Assembly: GCA_003345545.1 (NCBI GenBank)
Contig: PRDH01000044.1
Span: forward strand, 64,001 to 128,000
Reading direction: 5' to 3'
DNA from: Candidatus Thorarchaeota archaeon
Lineage (GTDB): Archaea; Asgardarchaeota; Thorarchaeia; Thorarchaeales; Thorarchaeaceae
DNA: 64,000 bases
Positions within the stretch are counted from its first letter, which is position 1, and each line of letters starts with the position of its first letter. Made by a program: the position numbers and the translations under genes. Shown here one piece after another: positions 51,516 through 63,772 of this stretch. The notes beneath the pieces are model-generated. The model was not told the DNA's origin. It did no database searches and saw only the letters and a program-made list of their open reading frames with translations.

Positions 51516-52352
51516 TCAGAACAGATAGCGAACAACGTCATCAAGGATGGCATAGGTTTCCAGTCTTTGAATGTCCCCCTTGACATATGGCATGACATCA
51601 TCAAAGATCATGTTTCGATACTCCTTAGGTGCGACAGTCTCCTGTGTCACTTTCCCTAGCAATCGCAGCAGTTCTTCCAAGGCGTCCCTCAAATGCTGAT
51701 AGGACACATCATAGACATCAATCTGAAGGACTTCAATACCCGCAGTATCAATAGGCACAGAGCTGAGGAAAGGATATTGACTGAGAAGGTGTTCAACGTG
51801 TTCGGTCATTTTGGCAACAATCTGACTCTTCTTGGCTTTGGTCGCCTTCACCTGCATGACGCCTCTGAAGAGATGACTATAGACCTCAAGGCAGTCCATT
51901 GATTTACCAGCGACCAAGCTCTCATCTGTTTCTTCATACTGTGTAACAAGCACATCCACCCAGTCACCGAAGCCCTTGAAAGTATTGCGAGTTCCAGGCC
52001 AATTCTTCAATAGTGTAGCGACATCACTACCAGGAGGCACAACATTTGTCATGAATTCCTTCAGAGCATACTCCAGCATGAAGCGCATGTGTCCAAGCCG
52101 GGCGGCCTTGCTCACGACCATAACGAACAGAAGATAGTCGTTCGCCTCCCAGACATACCGGTTGGTTTCCGTGTCGATTGTCTTGAGGGTCTCGTTAGAT
52201 GCCTTATCGATGAAGGTGTGGGTTGCAGAGAGAAAGGGGGCTATCAGATCCATATCTAGTTTCACAGCATCAGAATAGGCCTTGGCAACAATATTCCTGC
52301 CACTACCTCGCTCGATCACCCAGACTCCTAGAATGGACTTCTTGCTGGACAT
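51516..52352 (-). CDS. Longin-domain protein with helical C-terminal domain
   Basis: ILGVWVI..GSG..IV...Y....DLIAPFLSA..TF...LKTI.....YVW....LLFVMVV (beta-beta-alpha-beta-beta-beta-alpha-alpha); start at MSSKKS. Confidence 0.72.
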   Translation of the reverse strand: MSSKKSILGVWVIERGSGRNIVAKAYSDAVKLDMDLIAPFLSATHTFIDKASNETLKTIDTETNRYVWEANDYLLFVMVVSKAARLGHMRFMLEYALKEFMTNVVPPGSDVATLLKNWPGTRNTFKGFGDWVDVLVTQYEETDESLVAGKSMDCLEVYSHLFRGVMQVKATKAKKSQIVAKMTEHVEHLLSQYPFLSSVPIDTAGIEVLQIDVYDVSYQHLRDALEELLRLLGKVTQETVAPKEYRNMIFDDVMPYVKGDIQRLETYAILDDVVRYLF

Positions 52353-52470
52353 AGCATCATCTCTTGGGAGTATTGTTGAAATGAAGTATGATAAGCCTAT
52401 ATGTGACAGGAGGCATACACGAGAAGACGTACCTAGAAGAGAAGGCAAGACTTGCGTCCTGCCCCTTCAT

Positions 52471-58597: not shown

Positions 58598-60208
58598 ATG
58601 CCTCTTCTAGATGTGACCACCGGAGGTACTCAGTTGACAGAAGAGGCAACATCTGAACTGTGTCGATCCTGCCAGAAGAACAGAGCAACCCACATGTGTG
58701 AAGACTGCGGAGCAGCACTTTGCTTAGAATGTCTAGATAGCAGAACCACTGAGTATAGTGTATGTGGAGACTGTCACCACTCTCTCGGAGAAGCCATACC
58801 TGGGGAGAAATTCGAGAGCTGTCCTGAGTGCAAATCTGAGAACCTCACCAAGGGAAAACGTACTATTGATATTTGCGCTAGGTGTCACTCGGTTCGGGTC
58901 GTTGTCCTTGAGGATAAGAGAAGGACACTAGCCCTTGAAATGCGCCATGCCGTCATGACAATTCAGTATGGACATACCAAGCTTCGCGAATTCAACAGCA
59001 AACTCAGTGTCACTAAGCGTCTATTGGTGTCGCTCAGGATGGCGAATTTTCTCCATTACAAGTGGCTCGAAGAAAAGATAGAGGCAATCCAAGAGGAACT
59101 GCCAGCAATCAAGAACCGAATCGGAAGTCAGGCAGAGATAGTAGCCAGAAGGATGTCTGCTGAAACCAAGAACTTCATAGACTATGCTCTTTGGAGCCCA
59201 TCCCAATTTCCATTCATTGAGGGAATAACCAACAGAATCACAGAGCTCGGAATCTACTACAAACAAAACGTTGACGAGGCAATCGAGTCCCTCAGAACCA
59301 CACTGAAGGATGTCAAGAGGCAATTGGATGGTCTCGATTACTATAGGAATCACTTCACAAACTTCTACGAACATAGCCAGCTCTCTGTCGGAGAGCTCCC
59401 AGTGTGCGCTCTACCAGACGTGAAAGTAGCAGGAAGTGATTTCCTCAAGAACGACAAGGCCCTAGGAACACTGTACCTGACAAATAAGAGGCTCTTATTC
59501 TTGGCTGAGACTGGAAGAGTCCGCAGAAAGATGGAAACAATCTTCGATTTTCCGCTTCTTTATCTGAAGTCGATAGAGGAGGACGGGCGGTTTCGAAAGA
59601 GGCTAGTCCTGAAGCTCAAGCAGGGCGATGTGAGAATATCTTGTTCGGACCAGACAAAGAAGGTCTTACCAGACTATGTGGAGATCGCTCGCAAGTTCGA
59701 TAGGTATGTCCAGACGGACATGCAGAGAGTGCGCAAAATCGAGCAAGAAGAAGTCAGTATCAGCGATGTGAGGCTAAAGATCGAAGGGATGGTCTATTCA
59801 CTACTATCACCGAACAAGAAACAAGACGATGCCACAGCAATCGGGTCAGACCTTCGGTACCGAACCCAACCTTGGTCCACGTCCCAAGTTCAACCAAGGG
59901 AGATTCCTTATGGCACAGGCTACACGTCCCCGGAATTCTTCAGAAGGGATTTGGAGAGAACAATTGGCCGGAGCAGCCAGCCGCAAAATGGTGACATGCA
60001 ATACCGACCAAGCGAATCTATTGATACCCTTCAAAGAAACTCGGAGTCCATCTATGGAGCCATACGAGAAACTGTACACTTGTTGAGAGATGGTCGCTTA
60101 GTGACAGAAGACTTCATTCGAAGGTACAAAGATCTCATGAGAGATTCCTATCTCAACAGAAGAGAGATTCAGCGCCTCTCAAGAGAGTCCAGAGATCAAT
60201 TCTGGTAG
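58598..60208 (+). CDS. ESCRT-associated B-box/Zn-finger - coiled coil - GRAM/PH-like - steadiness-box-like protein
   Basis: Multiple CxxC pairs, heptads, GTLYLTNKRLLFL, C-terminal AIRETVHLLRDGRLVTEDFIRRYKDLMRDSY. Confidence 0.65.
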   Translation: MPLLDVTTGGTQLTEEATSELCRSCQKNRATHMCEDCGAALCLECLDSRTTEYSVCGDCHHSLGEAIPGEKFESCPECKSENLTKGKRTIDICARCHSVRVVVLEDKRRTLALEMRHAVMTIQYGHTKLREFNSKLSVTKRLLVSLRMANFLHYKWLEEKIEAIQEELPAIKNRIGSQAEIVARRMSAETKNFIDYALWSPSQFPFIEGITNRITELGIYYKQNVDEAIESLRTTLKDVKRQLDGLDYYRNHFTNFYEHSQLSVGELPVCALPDVKVAGSDFLKNDKALGTLYLTNKRLLFLAETGRVRRKMETIFDFPLLYLKSIEEDGRFRKRLVLKLKQGDVRISCSDQTKKVLPDYVEIARKFDRYVQTDMQRVRKIEQEEVSISDVRLKIEGMVYSLLSPNKKQDDATAIGSDLRYRTQPWSTSQVQPREIPYGTGYTSPEFFRRDLERTIGRSSQPQNGDMQYRPSESIDTLQRNSESIYGAIRETVHLLRDGRLVTEDFIRRYKDLMRDSYLNRREIQRLSRESRDQFW

Positions 60209-60212
60209 TACT

Positions 60213-60830
60213 CTACATCCCCAACTCACGTTCTAAGGATTTGATGTCATCCTCTAGAGACTCAATCTCGCCAAGGGGTTTCTTTACTGCAGCAGCGTCT
60301 GTAAGACCTGCTTCTATGTCAATCTCCTGCATTGCAGACGTGAGATCTTCAGACGAGATCTCCATAGTCGAGTCAAGAGCCTCATCGGATATGTCCGTTT
60401 CAATCTCGAATTCTTCAAGGCGTCGAGCAATCTCGTCAACGTTCGCGACGACCTTTGTCGAGTCAGTAGATTCGCCCAGCATGCCAAGAATCTTCGCCAC
60501 TTCCTGAAGAGCTAGAGAGGTCTTTGCCGACGTCTGAGCACGATTCAGGTGTGCAAGGATTTTTAGAATCTGAAGTCGTGACTTGTCGACGGAGAGCGCG
60601 TAGCGTCTGAAGCGGATCATCTCGGTAGCATAGGTTCGATATGCGTCAACCTGCCCGCCCTTCCGCGCACGTACAGCCCTGGCGCGTGTATCCTGTTCCT
60701 CTTTCTCGAGTTTGTTTCTCTGTCGAGCAAGCTGTTTGCTCAGGATTCTTAGACGACTGGAAATCTCACCAACATCTGGTTTCTTCTTACCCCAGGCAAA
60801 TGCCTTTCTTATTGAAGCCAAAGAATTCAC
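60213..60830 (-). CDS. ESCRT-III (Snf7 family, Vps2/24/46-like)
   Basis: Amphipathic N-terminal helix (LASIRKAFAWGKKK), basic helical hairpin, acidic C-terminal half, MIM1-like LEDDIKSLERELG; adjacent to vps4. Confidence 0.88.
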   Translation of the reverse strand: MNSLASIRKAFAWGKKKPDVGEISSRLRILSKQLARQRNKLEKEEQDTRARAVRARKGGQVDAYRTYATEMIRFRRYALSVDKSRLQILKILAHLNRAQTSAKTSLALQEVAKILGMLGESTDSTKVVANVDEIARRLEEFEIETDISDEALDSTMEISSEDLTSAMQEIDIEAGLTDAAAVKKPLGEIESLEDDIKSLERELGM

Positions 60831-60983: not shown

Positions 60984-62213
60984 ATGGCCGGATCGGATAG
61001 TGATAGATTGGACCTGGGGCTCAAGACTCTGCTCGACAGAGCCATAGAACTCGATCAGAGAGGAATGAAGAACGAGGCGTGCCAATTATACCTCAAGGCA
61101 AGTAAGATATTGATCAAGCTTTCAAACTCAGCCGCTCTTCCAACCATAAGAAAACACTACTTCAATCGCGCCCAAGAGTGCGTTGATAGGGTTAGATTCC
61201 TCTCAGGCATTAAGAAGAAATCGGCAGGACCTGTTGATGGTCTTGCTGAACCGCCAAAGGCAGACTTTGGTCCTGCCAAGCCTACGCGAATCAAGCAAGC
61301 ATCCAAGGTTGAGCAGGAGATTGACGAGGATGCGAAACGACTGCGAGAGATGATCTCGGACACAATCATCTCTGAGCGGCCCAAGATCAAACTGTCTGAA
61401 GTTGCTGGACTCGAAGACGCAAAACAGGCGATTAATGATGCAATAGTCACACCAATGAAACATCCGGAGCTATTCAAGGGCAAGGCAAGACAGCCATGGA
61501 GAGGAATCCTATTCTTTGGACCAGCAGGCTGTGGAAAGACACTCATTGCAAAAGCAGTGGCATCAGAGGTGAACGCGACATTCTTCAATGTCTCTGCCGC
61601 GAACATCGTCAGCAAGTGGTTGGGAGAGTCCGAACGCTTGGTCATGAGCCTCTTTGAACTGGCCAGAAAGAATCAGCCTGCAATCATTTTTGTTGATGAG
61701 CTCGACTCTATCGGTGTGTCGCGCTCTGGAGATGATGTTGGGGGAGAACGACGACTTAAGACCCAACTGCTTACAGAGCTTCAGGGTCTTGGAAGCAATC
61801 CAGAAGACAGAATCACTCTGATTGGAGCCACGAACCTACCGTGGGAGCTGGACTTTGCACTTCGGTCGAGATTTGAGAAGAAAATACATGTTCCACTTCC
61901 TGGACGAGAGGCAAGAACAGCAATCTTTGAAACCCATATGGAAGACATCGAGGTTTCTCCGACCATTGACTACGAAGAGATGGCAGATCTGACCGAAGGG
62001 TACAGTGGTCGAGACATAAGCATCGTCTGCCGAGAGGCAGCAATGGAACCAATCCGAGACCTTCAGCGCACTGGAAGAATGGACGATGAGAGAGAAATCT
62101 TGGACATCCGGCCCGTTTCAAGGGAAGACTTCTTGAGCGCCATCGAGAACATCAGACCTGCAACTCCCCCAGAGGATGTCAGGAAATACATTGACTGGGC
62201 GGAGGGTTCTTAG
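60984..62213 (+). CDS. vps4: Vps4 AAA+ ATPase (MIT + AAA)
   Basis: N-terminal MIT; VAGLEDAKQAI, PWRGIL, GPAGCGKT, SKWLGESE, FVDELDS, ATNLPWELD, TEGYSG. Confidence 0.93.
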   Translation: MAGSDSDRLDLGLKTLLDRAIELDQRGMKNEACQLYLKASKILIKLSNSAALPTIRKHYFNRAQECVDRVRFLSGIKKKSAGPVDGLAEPPKADFGPAKPTRIKQASKVEQEIDEDAKRLREMISDTIISERPKIKLSEVAGLEDAKQAINDAIVTPMKHPELFKGKARQPWRGILFFGPAGCGKTLIAKAVASEVNATFFNVSAANIVSKWLGESERLVMSLFELARKNQPAIIFVDELDSIGVSRSGDDVGGERRLKTQLLTELQGLGSNPEDRITLIGATNLPWELDFALRSRFEKKIHVPLPGREARTAIFETHMEDIEVSPTIDYEEMADLTEGYSGRDISIVCREAAMEPIRDLQRTGRMDDEREILDIRPVSREDFLSAIENIRPATPPEDVRKYIDWAEGS

Positions 62214-62216
62214 AGG

Positions 62217-62954
62217 TTGGGCATGAGAGAGAAGCGGAAAGAGAAACGAAGAGAAGAGGCCCAGGAAGAACCAGAAGATACTGAGGTGGTCAGGACAGTT
62301 CAGGAGGCAGAGACCTCCCCAGTAATAGAGGAAGACATTCACACACCCGAGGTCATCATTGGGAAGCCCGATGCGACTGAAGTAGTCTCTGAGAATGAAG
62401 CTGTCACAGACGAAACCGAAGCAGAGAAACTTCAGAGCGTACCAGTCGTTTCGATGCCCCCTTGGGGTAGCCCCGAGGAGAGCGAATGGATGTACGGTGT
62501 TCCTCCAAGAGAAGAGGATAGAATCTTGTGGGCAGAGGAGTGGTCAGATTATCTGCTTCAATGGGCAGAACTCAAACAGATCCATGTACTATCCCTTGCT
62601 GTGTTCATTAGTGAACCTCCTTTCAATGATTTGAGAAACAAGGTCGACTCCTTCAAGATGATTTCCGAGGTCCTCATCGATAAGGAGGTGGCGGAATGGA
62701 GTGATAGGCGAAGACGCCAACTCAGAATCTTTTGGAAACCACTTGAGGACTGGGCGGACCTGATATATGAGTGGTCCCTGAGAACAGGAAAGCTAAGACT
62801 AGATGTGAAGTCCATAGTGATACAGGAGTCAAAGGAGAGCTTTGCAAAGCTTCCTGAAAGAGACCTCCATGTTGTTATGGGGTTGATGGTAGAGAAAGGA
62901 TTTGCTGAGTGGATTGATAAGAAGAAGGGCGCAGTCCTGGTATCGACTCAGTAG
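62217..62954 (+). CDS. vps25: ESCRT-II Vps25-like protein with acidic N-terminal extension
   Basis: MPPW...PP...W..EWSDYLLQW, PPF, AEW, IFWKPLEDWADLIYEW. Confidence 0.85.
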   Translation: MGMREKRKEKRREEAQEEPEDTEVVRTVQEAETSPVIEEDIHTPEVIIGKPDATEVVSENEAVTDETEAEKLQSVPVVSMPPWGSPEESEWMYGVPPREEDRILWAEEWSDYLLQWAELKQIHVLSLAVFISEPPFNDLRNKVDSFKMISEVLIDKEVAEWSDRRRRQLRIFWKPLEDWADLIYEWSLRTGKLRLDVKSIVIQESKESFAKLPERDLHVVMGLMVEKGFAEWIDKKKGAVLVSTQ

Positions 62955-63772
62955 GCTCCTTGGTTTGAGGTTTCAGGTTTATCTCGTGCTCTGAGACCCG
63001 GAAAATAATACCTCCCGCCTGTTGAGAAACGGATATCTGCAACTGCCATTCCGGTTTCTACGAGGCTCGTGAGCACTTGACGTGCATGATCTTCGGACCA
63101 TTTGAGCTGCATCATCACGTCTTCTACTGAAACATGACCTTTCGATGCTGCCAGGTTGACCACATCAGCTTGATCACGGCGGAGTTCGAGCGGCCTTAGC
63201 TCTACGACCTTCACTCCTCCACGAAGAGTCCGAATGCCAGGCAACAGACCGTTCTCTGACACCCGATTGACTGCCTCGATTACATCATTGTATGTAACGG
63301 ATTTCATCTCAGGAAGACGGCGTACGACCTCGACAATGAGCTCCGCAAGCCCCATTAGTCCCTTCGAAGCGTGCTCAGTCGCAACATCAAGTATTGCTAA
63401 GCCAATATAATCATAGTACTGGTCAGCATTCATTCCCTGATAGGACGTTGCGGAAGCACTCTCGCGGAGCCTGAGAAGGTCAGCAGCATCTGGAAAGACC
63501 TCTGTTATCCGTTCGCCTGCAAAGAAGCCCCCGACATCCAGTCCGCTTCGCTTCAGATTATCAATATGGCTCCGCACCTCCTGAAGGAGTGCTTGTGATT
63601 CTCTCTGGAATGATCCAATATCAACAGCACCCAGGTCATACAGCTTCTTCAGCTGGTCAAGCGTGGCAATGGAGGCATAGAGTTCTGTTTCGAATCGCTC
63701 CTGCATCGGTGATAGTTCCTTCTCTATTCTGAAAGTCCGCACAATGCTGACAAGACTCATTAAATTGCTCAT
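62948..63772 (-). CDS. Vps28-N-like::EAP30 (Vps22/Vps36-like) fusion protein
   Basis: N-terminal ELYASIATLDQLKKLY...FQRESQALL; C-terminal DQYYDYIGLAI...GLMGL..VTYNDVIEAV...GHVSV..LKWS..AR.VL..LV..G.A..D....RYYFP. Confidence 0.8.
   Translation of the reverse strand: MSNLMSLVSIVRTFRIEKELSPMQERFETELYASIATLDQLKKLYDLGAVDIGSFQRESQALLQEVRSHIDNLKRSGLDVGGFFAGERITEVFPDAADLLRLRESASATSYQGMNADQYYDYIGLAILDVATEHASKGLMGLAELIVEVVRRLPEMKSVTYNDVIEAVNRVSENGLLPGIRTLRGGVKVVELRPLELRRDQADVVNLAASKGHVSVEDVMMQLKWSEDHARQVLTSLVETGMAVADIRFSTGGRYYFPGLRARDKPETSNQGAY

Follow-up and report, generated by a model that had tools for sequence, protein, structure and literature searches.

Among prokaryotes, the nearest relatives of the eukaryotic membrane-sorting machinery are the ESCRT proteins of Asgard archaea. 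For Thorarchaeota, the literature reports the absence of ubiquitin and also of canonical ESCRT-I. Which protein could link membrane and cargo to ESCRT-II in these archaea, a point bearing on whether ESCRT sorting started without ubiquitin, is the question raised by a gene found in the window, i.e. the whole stretch of 64,000 nucleotides of Candidatus Thorarchaeota DNA which was analyzed. The gene and its surroundings are as follows.

58598..60208, plus strand: open reading frame of a Znr_CC_PH_SB protein, 536 aa from ATG 58598, probably 524 aa from TTG 58634
58622..58627, plus strand: GGAGGT, Shine-Dalgarno-like motif, 6 nt upstream of TTG 58634
60213..60830, minus strand: ESCRT-III, Snf7 family (Pfam Snf7, 5.2e-10), convergent with the target gene, the gene ends being 4 nt apart
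60984..62213, plus strand: Vps4 ATPase (MIT, AAA and Vps4_C)
62217..62954, plus strand: Vps25-like ESCRT-II subunit (Pfam ESCRT-II, 2.3e-13)
62948..63772, minus strand: Vps22-like ESCRT-II subunit (EAP30 winged helices), probable start at Met23, nt 63706

The translation of 58598-60205 (plus strand) is uninterrupted and 536 aa long. The true start is probably TTG 58634, which would give a protein of 524 aa, because the GGAGGT motif precedes this codon and most homologues begin with M-T-E-(E/D) at the matching position. Contigs of two metatranscriptome libraries overlie the ORF, which is no proof of transcription, start site or strand. A preliminary description, made from the letters alone, had read the frame as a chain of zinc fingers, coiled coil, PH domain, linker and steadiness box; the frame is real, and every feature listed there is present and conserved.

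The gene product almost certainly belongs, as the Thorarchaeota representative, to the Asgard family Znr_CC_PH_SB (asCOG cog.011556), which was defined with the same architecture (three Zn ribbons, coiled coil, PH, steadiness box) by Makarova et al. (2024, mBio, PMC10936438). By sequence comparison it is the orthologue of ThorAB25_08990, called SB and subjected to two-hybrid assays by Hatano et al. (2022, Nat Commun, PMC9192718); the ThorAB25_08990 sequence given in the supplement, compared by eye, features the family motifs end to end. The Thor AB_25 locus (L022) encodes a protein 68% identical across residues 7-536, in the same gene order. Word and profile searches retrieved no fewer than 165 close homologues, as well as 116 clusters formed at 50% identity. 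The family profile is present in 292 of 400 Asgard genomes, and reaches Loki-type proteins of 640-790 aa, identical in domain order, at E 1e-33 to 1e-45. Membership was judged through the AB_25 and Loki-type relatives, GC14_75 As_004-p_01543 being the described Loki member. Invariant columns number 66 among 95 Thorarchaeota homologues; together with the 12 invariant Cys residues and the C-terminal motif described below, this conservation across the family indicates that the quoted features are not due to chance. As the family and its likely role were published in 2022 and 2024, the preliminary reading is confirmed, yet it is no discovery, the gene being another species' copy.

The whole-protein AlphaFold2 model has a mean pLDDT of 80, and the chain divides into five regions.

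58661..58885, plus strand: zinc module, residues 22-96, six invariant CxxC pairs, modelled at pLDDT ~88
58907..59374, plus strand: helical stalk, residues 104-259, from the AlphaFold2 model
59381..59710, plus strand: PH domain of the GRAM/GLUE/bPH kind, residues 262-371, from fold match and Pfam across the family
59807..60010, plus strand: Y/P/Q-rich linker, residues 404-471, poorly conserved and mostly disordered
60020..60202, plus strand: steadiness box, a Vps23-type helical hairpin, residues 475-535, from model, profile and Pfam

Domain support comes from family-wide and domain-wise profiles and from the fold, not from the window's protein alone; all Pfam matches on this protein are below threshold, and a single-sequence search of the PDB gave nothing significant. 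The structure prediction and the domain-wise HMM searches suggested in the preliminary description were both run, and a PH fold as well as a C-terminal helical hairpin were found.

The six Cys motifs quoted earlier are all present (CRSC 22-25, CEDC 34-37, CLEC 42-45, CGDC 56-59, CPEC 75-78, CARC 93-96), and none of the 12 Cys varies among 30 sequences, relatives at 17-37% identity included. The module should form three Cys4 zinc sites, arranged as a B-box/RING/ZZ-like cross-brace and a zinc ribbon. Of 95 homologues, 49 are matched by the Pfam zf-B_box model, the best at E 7.9e-6; the score is over the Pfam cut-off in one relative (P0161, 25.5 vs. 24.1 bits) and under threshold in the window's protein. 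A profile of the module matches the B-boxes of TRIM2 (2.7e-4) and CONSTANS (8e-4), the RINGs of BRE1 and TRIM21, and the RNF4 RING, for which the summed E of 4.9e-7 derives from two stretches of a tandem-RING chain, each at ~5e-3 to 1e-2. Foldseek searches with the module gave nothing at E <= 0.001. In VIA-wide comparisons the best structure was the COL2 tandem B-box, at a Z of only 4.9; B-box, ZZ, RING/U-box and MCM-type ribbon folds scored alike, none of them above this value. The proposal of a B-box-like finger is plausible on the homologue counts and profile matches. The epithet TRIM-like stands insofar as a probably B-box-like finger is followed by long helices; a separate N-terminal RING was not found, one cross-brace module lying ahead of the helices, and the term is thus an architectural analogy only.

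FYVE zinc fingers carry a (R/K)(R/K)HHCR basic motif for PI3P. This motif is missing in the window's protein, which has ATHMCEDCG at the corresponding Cys pair, and a FYVE reading (matches at E 0.01-0.02) was for this reason rejected.

The long coiled coil noted earlier corresponds to three long, confidently modelled helices (104-148, 155-189, 201-252) plus a short one, pLDDT being mostly 80-97. The stalk leads into the PH domain, which includes GTLYLTNKRLLFL (residues 290-302), quoted in the preliminary description within 59390-59710. The GRAM/GLUE-type fold attributed to this region was recovered by VIA-align, the best superpositions being those to the MTMR2 PH-GRAM domain (Z 12.9, rmsd 2.8, 107 residues aligned), Lam6 (Z 12.2) and the EAP45 GLUE domain (2hth_B; Z 11.4, rmsd 3.5, 106 aligned). 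When PH regions only were searched, Pfam matches were to bPH_3 in 22, Vps36_ESCRT-II in 21 and GRAM in 15 of 27 sequences; the five matches of a PH-only profile to the PDB, all sub-significant (E 0.04-0.9), are of the bPH/BBS5/Vps36 kind. Basic residues K287, R298, R309, K311 and K341 are conserved, and the domain is a predicted membrane anchor. RhoGEF DH-PH tandems topped the whole-model Foldseek search; at rmsd 17-26 Å (7-15 Å by VIA-align) they were set aside as a coincidence of helices plus PH.

The low-complexity Y/P/Q linker is likewise present at ~404-471. Its pLDDT is < 50 at 407-443 and 457-471, one low-confidence helix spans 445-457, and the family consensus consists of 'x' throughout. 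The steadiness box beyond it is made up by helices 475-497 and 503-535, both at pLDDT ~96. It includes AIRETVHLLRDGRLVTEDFIRRYKDLMRDSYLNRREI (residues 479-515, ~60032-60142), a C-terminal motif seen again in relatives that belong to several further Asgard families. A profile of the C-terminal 70 aa matches the yeast Vps23 core at E 2.6e-5 (2f66_A), chain A (Vps23) of the 2f66, 2caz and 2p22 crystals being hit over a range of 2.6e-5 to 2.7e-4, and human TSG101 at 0.016. Pfam Vps23_core was found in 21 of 33 C-terminal members (best 4.8e-6), Pfam CdvA in 2 of 33 C-terminal fragments (best 2.6e-4). These figures bear out the TSG101-type hairpin which had been proposed; the whole-protein profile reaches Vps23 in the PDB at only E 0.56-1. 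The top match of the C-terminal profile, the phycobilisome linker Glr2806, reflects a 17-residue repeated motif and was discarded.

Canonical ESCRT-I components were looked for in the genome to which the window belongs, which is 93% complete, and no match above noise was found for ubiquitin, E2 (UQ_con), UEV, Vps23 or Vps28; nor does the window's protein match UEV. A steadiness-box HMM run on the same genome gave one other near-full-length weak match, a GIFT-domain protein (C44:139406-140800), and did not detect the Vps22 N-terminus; further matches on two contigs (C19, C15) were dismissed as generic coiled coil. ESCRT-III paralogues of this genome lie on C44 and C19. Thorarchaeota being without ubiquitin, UEV-Vps23 and Vps28, this Znr_CC_PH_SB protein is their only ESCRT-I-like part. 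The earlier suggestion of an ESCRT-I-like adaptor without UEV fits both this genome and the ESCRT neighbourhood, and the same conclusion was drawn by Makarova et al. (2024, PMC10936438).

Snf7, Vps4, Vps25 and Vps22 genes adjoin the target in 59-69 of 72 Thorarchaeota loci, Snf7 being adjacent in 69. Unrelated genes (ArgRS, TldD) are also kept in this synteny, which is for that reason weak on its own. ESCRT genes flank distant relatives in three other Asgard families as well (L105, L107, L110), Snf7 again among the adjacent genes. At 5 of 10 distant loci tblastn with Thorarchaeota queries revealed no ESCRT genes within ~9 kb, a result which is not evidence of absence. One genus (g80) has a protein, P0152, that joins the Zn-helix-PH head to EAP30 winged helices, these being nearer to Vps22/SNF8 (5.5e-6) than to Vps36 (3.4e-3). 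EAP30 winged helices behind the PH domain are seen in this fused relative only, and find no match in the window's protein. By the Rosetta-stone argument the fusion links the head to Vps22; its architecture is Vps36-like, and it is an addition to the published papers.

A second link to Vps22 is suggested by structure prediction. The feature concerned is the following.

63452..63706, minus strand: Vps28-N-like helical hairpin at the Vps22 N-terminus (residues 1-85, numbering from Met23), on which the steadiness box is predicted to dock

The Vps22 N-terminus matches the Vps28 N-domain weakly (E 0.10-0.16; chain B of 2f66, 2f6m, 2caz and 2p22). The predicted complex of Vps22(1-85) and target(470-536) scored 0.78, vs. 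0.17 for the best of three controls. In calibration, 58 of 80 solved complexes and 2 of 110 mismatched pairs attained this mark; the counts are only rough because own alignments were used. At least 97% of the contacts were common to the runs, partner pLDDT was at least 82, and the residues most conserved in either protein lie in the predicted interface (target 493-522, Vps22 3-40), among them the invariant F506 and L513 of the target, with A11 and T15 on the Vps22 side. The pass may reflect model memory of the solved Vps23-Vps28 headpiece or ESCRT-I cores, the weakness of the Vps28 matches and the failure of the steadiness-box HMM to detect the Vps22 N-terminus speak against it, and the chances that the steadiness box docks on the Vps28-like hairpin of Vps22, a contact predicted under controls, are put at about even. 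The controlled prediction of a partner surface on Vps22 is a further addition to the published papers.

Taken as a whole, the probable reading is that of a Znr_CC_PH_SB member working as a single-chain ESCRT-I-like adaptor, docked onto ESCRT-II through Vps22. The N-terminal module, holding three predicted zinc ions, would recognize protein or cargo; the rigid helical stalk would be the second working part, the basic GRAM/GLUE-like PH domain would keep the adaptor on the membrane, and the flexible linker would carry at its end the Vps23-type steadiness-box hairpin. By packing against the Vps28-like hairpin at the N-terminus of Thorarchaeota Vps22, it would wire the adaptor directly to ESCRT-II (Vps22-Vps25), which would nucleate ESCRT-III and Vps4. 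Adaptor and Vps22 would jointly cover the roles of eukaryotic Vps23, Vps28 and the Vps36 GLUE domain without ubiquitin, UEV, Vps23 or Vps28. A tentative and rather doubtful extension is that of a merged ESCRT-I/II complex, in which the Vps23-type hairpin would clamp the Vps28-type hairpin of Vps22, PH domain and zinc head would replace the contacts of Vps36 (GLUE plus NZF), and P0152 would be the covalent version. If this were true, the g80 fusion would put the head forward as a possible ancestor of the Vps36 GLUE domain, or as a near relative of it, and the pathway would be ubiquitin-independent.

Hairpin and stalk may alternatively recruit ESCRT-III, encoded by the convergent Snf7 gene, straight to the membrane and bypass ESCRT-II, as in the CdvA-CdvB pair of Sulfolobales. 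The constancy of the Snf7 neighbour, in the 69 Thorarchaeota loci as in the three distant ones, and the two CdvA matches among C-terminal fragments are in line with such a route; the steadiness box has been related to the CdvA hairpin in published work, and the text of Hatano et al. (2022, PMC9192718) hints at contacts of Thorarchaeota ESCRT-I/II with ESCRT-III bypassing Vps25. Yet Vps23_core matches are far commoner and stronger than those to CdvA, CdvA binds a winged helix which in Asgard ESCRT-III is only putative, and the Vps22 complex prediction passes its controls, all of which makes the direct route unlikely. A self-assembling scaffold, steadiness boxes and stalks of several copies bundling into a homo-oligomer that would act as membrane coat or sensor and have no fixed tie to ESCRT-II, would account for the long helices, typical of dimeric stalks, and would have a precedent in the stable dimer that Odinarchaeota Vps23 forms via the same kind of region, as reported by Hatano et al. 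(2022, PMC9192718). The fusion of the g80 head to Vps22-like winged helices points instead to ESCRT-II, and the hetero-complex prediction passes; the two readings are compatible with each other, and a scaffold devoid of the ESCRT-II link is held to be improbable.

The zinc module also invites comparison with TRIM-like E3 ligases, in which a RING/B-box-like module would recruit an E2 and modify cargo, the coiled coil dimerizing as in TRIM proteins. The profile matches to the RNF4, BRE1 and TRIM21 RINGs and to the TRIM2 B-box go in this direction, and a RING domain is named in the legend to Supplementary Fig. 8 of Hatano et al. (2022, PMC9192718). Against them stand the 93% complete genome with no match for ubiquitin, E2 (UQ_con) or UEV, the reported lack of ubiquitin in Thorarchaeota, the presence of a single cross-brace module rather than RING plus B-box, and structural matches which are weak (Z <= 4.9) and tied with ZZ domains and zinc ribbons. 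A ligase is hence very improbable, and the adaptor docked onto ESCRT-II is the reading retained here.

The analysis brings to light no new kind of object, its modest additions being the partner-surface prediction on Vps22 and the natural fusion of head and winged helices; docking prediction and head fusion provide concrete constructs for pull-downs and structures. Compared with the described Znr_CC_PH_SB family and ThorAB25_08990, the window's protein shares architecture, ESCRT neighbourhood and lineage; Thorarchaeota copies are ~520 aa long, Loki-type members 650-790 aa with longer linkers, and nothing else of substance differs. With TRIM and other B-box-coiled-coil proteins it shares a cross-brace finger, probably B-box-like, followed by long helices. 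It differs from TRIM proteins in having no RING before the B-box and an extra zinc ribbon, and neither E3 activity nor a ubiquitin system is indicated by its genome. Like Vps23/TSG101 it has a helical stalk and a flexible linker leading to a terminal steadiness-box hairpin, whose predicted partner is a Vps28-like hairpin. Zinc fingers and PH domain, however, take the place of UEV, and in Thorarchaeota the Vps28-like partner hairpin is part of Vps22, not a separate Vps28. Unlike Vps36/EAP45, the window's protein is without winged helices, and its zinc fingers stand at the N-terminus instead of interrupting the PH domain. The two have in common a GRAM-like PH domain, alike in fold and weakly in sequence, which in the window's protein as in yeast Vps36 is accompanied by zinc fingers; the relative P0152 carries the likeness further, its head being fused to EAP30 winged helices.

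The putative adaptor encoded in the window is a member of an Asgard family already described. Family cog.011556 (Znr_CC_PH_SB) has been defined as a likely ESCRT-I component, the PH domain of which is expected to bind membrane (Makarova et al. 2024, PMC10936438). ThorAB25_08990, named SB, is one of six Thorarchaeota proteins in a two-hybrid set, the other five being Vps22, Vps25, Vps4, ESCRT-IIIA and IIIB; Vps28, Vps23 and ubiquitin are not in the set, and RING, CC, PH and SB domains are named in the legend (Hatano et al. 2022, PMC9192718). As the window protein is 68% identical to that of the AB_25 locus, the finding is a correct rediscovery.

58598-60208 (+), stop-free ORF, translated into 536 residues: the proposed adaptor
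58622-58636 (+), GGAGGT and, 6 nt on, TTG (58634), which lies 12 codons downstream of the ATG of the annotated ORF

The true start is probably the TTG, at which M-T-E-(E/D), the N-terminus of most homologues, is found. Two wetland metatranscriptome libraries (different studies) yield short contigs that align within 58628-60068 at 99-100% identity, a weak hint of transcription; one further contig lies at 62101-62251. The features read from the sequence in the preliminary description are all in place: six CxxC motifs in a Cys-rich N-terminus (residues 22-25, 34-37, 42-45, 56-59, 75-78, 93-96), the PH motif GTLYLTNKRLLFL (290-302), a Y/P/Q-rich, low-complexity linker (about 404-471) and the C-terminal motif AIRETVHLLRDGRLVTEDFIRRYKDLMRDSYLNRREI (479-515).

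At least 165 homologues were found by word-indexed search, nearly all named records among the best 120 being labelled Thorarchaeota. In the alignment of 95 full-length homologues, column identity averages 63% and 66 columns are invariant. Searched with a profile, 1.8 billion representatives gave 116 clusters, some of 600-1171 aa; where a name is given, it is Promethearchaeota, Odinarchaeota, Heimdallarchaeota or Asgard group. In whole-genome searches the profile matched 292/400 Asgard genomes, including 82/85 of the window's own family, but none in some other Asgard families (e.g. 0/31 and 0/22 genomes).

An AlphaFold2 model built on the homologue alignment (mean pLDDT 80) contains:

residues 20-103, β-rich zinc region
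residues 104-148, 155-189 and 201-252, three long helices
residues 268-365, β-sandwich with C-terminal helix
residues 407-443 and 457-471, pLDDT <50, in the mostly disordered linker
residues 475-497 and 503-535, confident helical hairpin

The β-sandwich is the GRAM/GLUE-like PH domain that had been proposed, as seen when Foldseek candidates were compared by VIA-align:

MTMR2 PH-GRAM, Z 12.9, rmsd 2.8 Å, 107 aligned
Lam6 PH-like, Z 12.2, rmsd 2.6 Å, 107 aligned
BBS5, Z 11.7, rmsd 2.2 Å, 99 aligned
EAP45 GLUE, Z 11.4, rmsd 3.5 Å, 106 aligned

Among 27 PH-only fragments, Pfam bPH_3 was detected in 22 (best 1.9e-7), Vps36_ESCRT-II in 21 (1.1e-5) and GRAM in 15 (7.4e-5); matches of the window protein's own fragment are below threshold (E 0.02-0.09).

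The tail assignment to a steadiness box holds as well. A profile built from the C-terminal 70 aa at 33 loci, eight of them in other Asgard families, matches the yeast Vps23 core (2f66_A, E 2.6e-5, positions 10-63 against 9-62; 2caz_A and 2p22_A, about 2.5e-4) and human TSG101 (6vme_B, 0.016). Pfam Vps23_core is found in 21/33 fragments (best 4.8e-6), Mod_r in 8 and CdvA in 2. The model thus has both a PH fold and a Vps23-type hairpin.

The zinc module is less easily named. Since none of the 12 Cys varies among 30 sequences, with identity down to 17%, three Cys4 sites are expected. Its profile matches the RNF4 RING (a summed E of 4.9e-7 for two segments of a tandem-RING chain), the TRIM2 B-box (2.7e-4) and CONSTANS B-boxes (about 1e-3), and Pfam zf-B_box is found in 49/95 homologues (best 7.9e-6). 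Modelled separately (pLDDT 88), the module has no significant Foldseek match; the best VIA-align match, the COL2 tandem B-box (Z 4.9), is tied with ZZ domains, RING/U-box domains and MCM-type ribbons. The name "B-box-like" is thus reasonable but not exclusive. Published labels also disagree, being "RING" (Hatano et al. 2022, PMC9192718) and "Zn ribbons" (Makarova et al. 2024, PMC10936438).

Downstream of the adaptor lie, in order, Snf7 (−), Vps4 (+), Vps25 (+) and EAP30/Vps22 (−). Of 72 Thorarchaeota loci, 59-69 keep this order; since ArgRS and TldD are retained upstream too, synteny within the class is by itself weak evidence. More telling are distant relatives, which adjoin Snf7 (L105 and L110) or Vps25-Vps4-Snf7 (L107); the L111 relative, itself fused to Vps22-like winged helices, lies about 7 kb downstream of a separate Vps22 gene. 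An ORF of 310 aa (51516-52448, −) weakly matches a longin domain (Fuz_longin_1, E 0.005) and, in 38/72 Thorarchaeota loci, is kept upstream of the adaptor at a distance of about 7 kb.

In the adaptor's own genome (2.69 Mb, 93% complete) Vps23_core, VPS28, UEV, ubiquitin and UQ_con have no match above noise, and UEV-Vps23 is missing from Loki- and Thorarchaeia (2023 preprint). ESCRT neighbours and the missing UEV support the proposed ESCRT-I-like adaptor without UEV, an interpretation already known. RING and B-box matches notwithstanding, a TRIM-like E3 ligase is unlikely, because neither ubiquitin nor E2 is matched. The genome has two Snf7 genes and one clear EAP30 gene; weak EAP30-like matches in a 278-aa ORF (G000:C29:977-1174, −; E 0.003) and a 788-aa ORF (G000:C19:66902-67264, +; E 0.009) may be divergent winged-helix ESCRT-II paralogues.

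With neither Vps23 nor Vps28 matched in the genome, the adaptor's hairpin would dock on a Vps28-like N-terminal region of Vps22, plugging the protein straight into ESCRT-II.

62948-63772 (-), Vps22 ORF, probably 22 codons too long; homologues begin at Met23 (nt 63706), the probable start

The N-terminal helical region of Vps22 is invariant, and the sole PDB matches of residues 10-72, though weak (E 0.10-0.16), are to the yeast Vps28 N-domain (chains B of 2f66, 2f6m, 2p22 and 2caz); in 2f66, 2p22 and 2caz, chain A is matched by the adaptor tail. Predicted as a complex, Vps22(1-85) and adaptor residues 470-536 scored 0.78 (best of three controls, 0.17) and passed a mark attained by 58/80 solved complexes and 2/110 mismatched pairs. 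Contacts agree between runs to 97% or more, the partner's pLDDT is 82 or higher, and the predicted interface (adaptor 493-522, Vps22 3-40) comprises the most conserved residues of each. The pass may mirror the resemblance of the pair to the solved Vps23-Vps28 headpiece, and supports, but does not show, binding of the steadiness box to the Vps22 N-terminal hairpin. The data are likewise compatible with a CdvA-like mode, in which ESCRT-III is recruited directly, and with self-assembly via hairpin and stalk. In a 465-aa protein 11.4 kb past the window end (G000:C44:139406-140800, +; L117:11406-12800), an IFT52 GIFT domain (Pfam 2.3e-15) precedes a long coiled coil. The C-terminal 64 residues resemble the steadiness-box profile (domain E 0.2) and Pfam VPS28 (E 0.1) weakly; they could be an extra hairpin for the same headpiece, or the resemblance could be coiled-coil noise.

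We read the adaptor as a membrane-bound, zinc-finger-headed, ESCRT-I-like protein joined directly to ESCRT-II; its membrane binding, the ligand of its zinc module and the cellular process served are what we infer. Additions to the literature are modest, namely the predicted docking on Vps22 and a Vps36-like fusion. Asgard Vps22 (cog.002769) is reported to carry a fused steadiness box (Makarova et al. 2024, PMC10936438). In genus g80, proteins of three genomes (G298, G299, G300) have the same zinc-helix head; the one copy examined is from G299.

L111:9701-11506 (+), P0152/P0239, 601 aa, fused relative

From the zinc module through the helices to the PH domain (Pfam Vps36_ESCRT-II 1.8e-4), P0152 is built like the adaptor; EAP30 winged helices (Pfam 1.8e-11) then replace linker and steadiness-box hairpin, which points the same way as the adaptor-Vps22 link. 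The architecture of P0152 is Vps36-like; among PDB chains, its winged helices match SNF8 (5.5e-6) better than Vps36 (3.4e-3).
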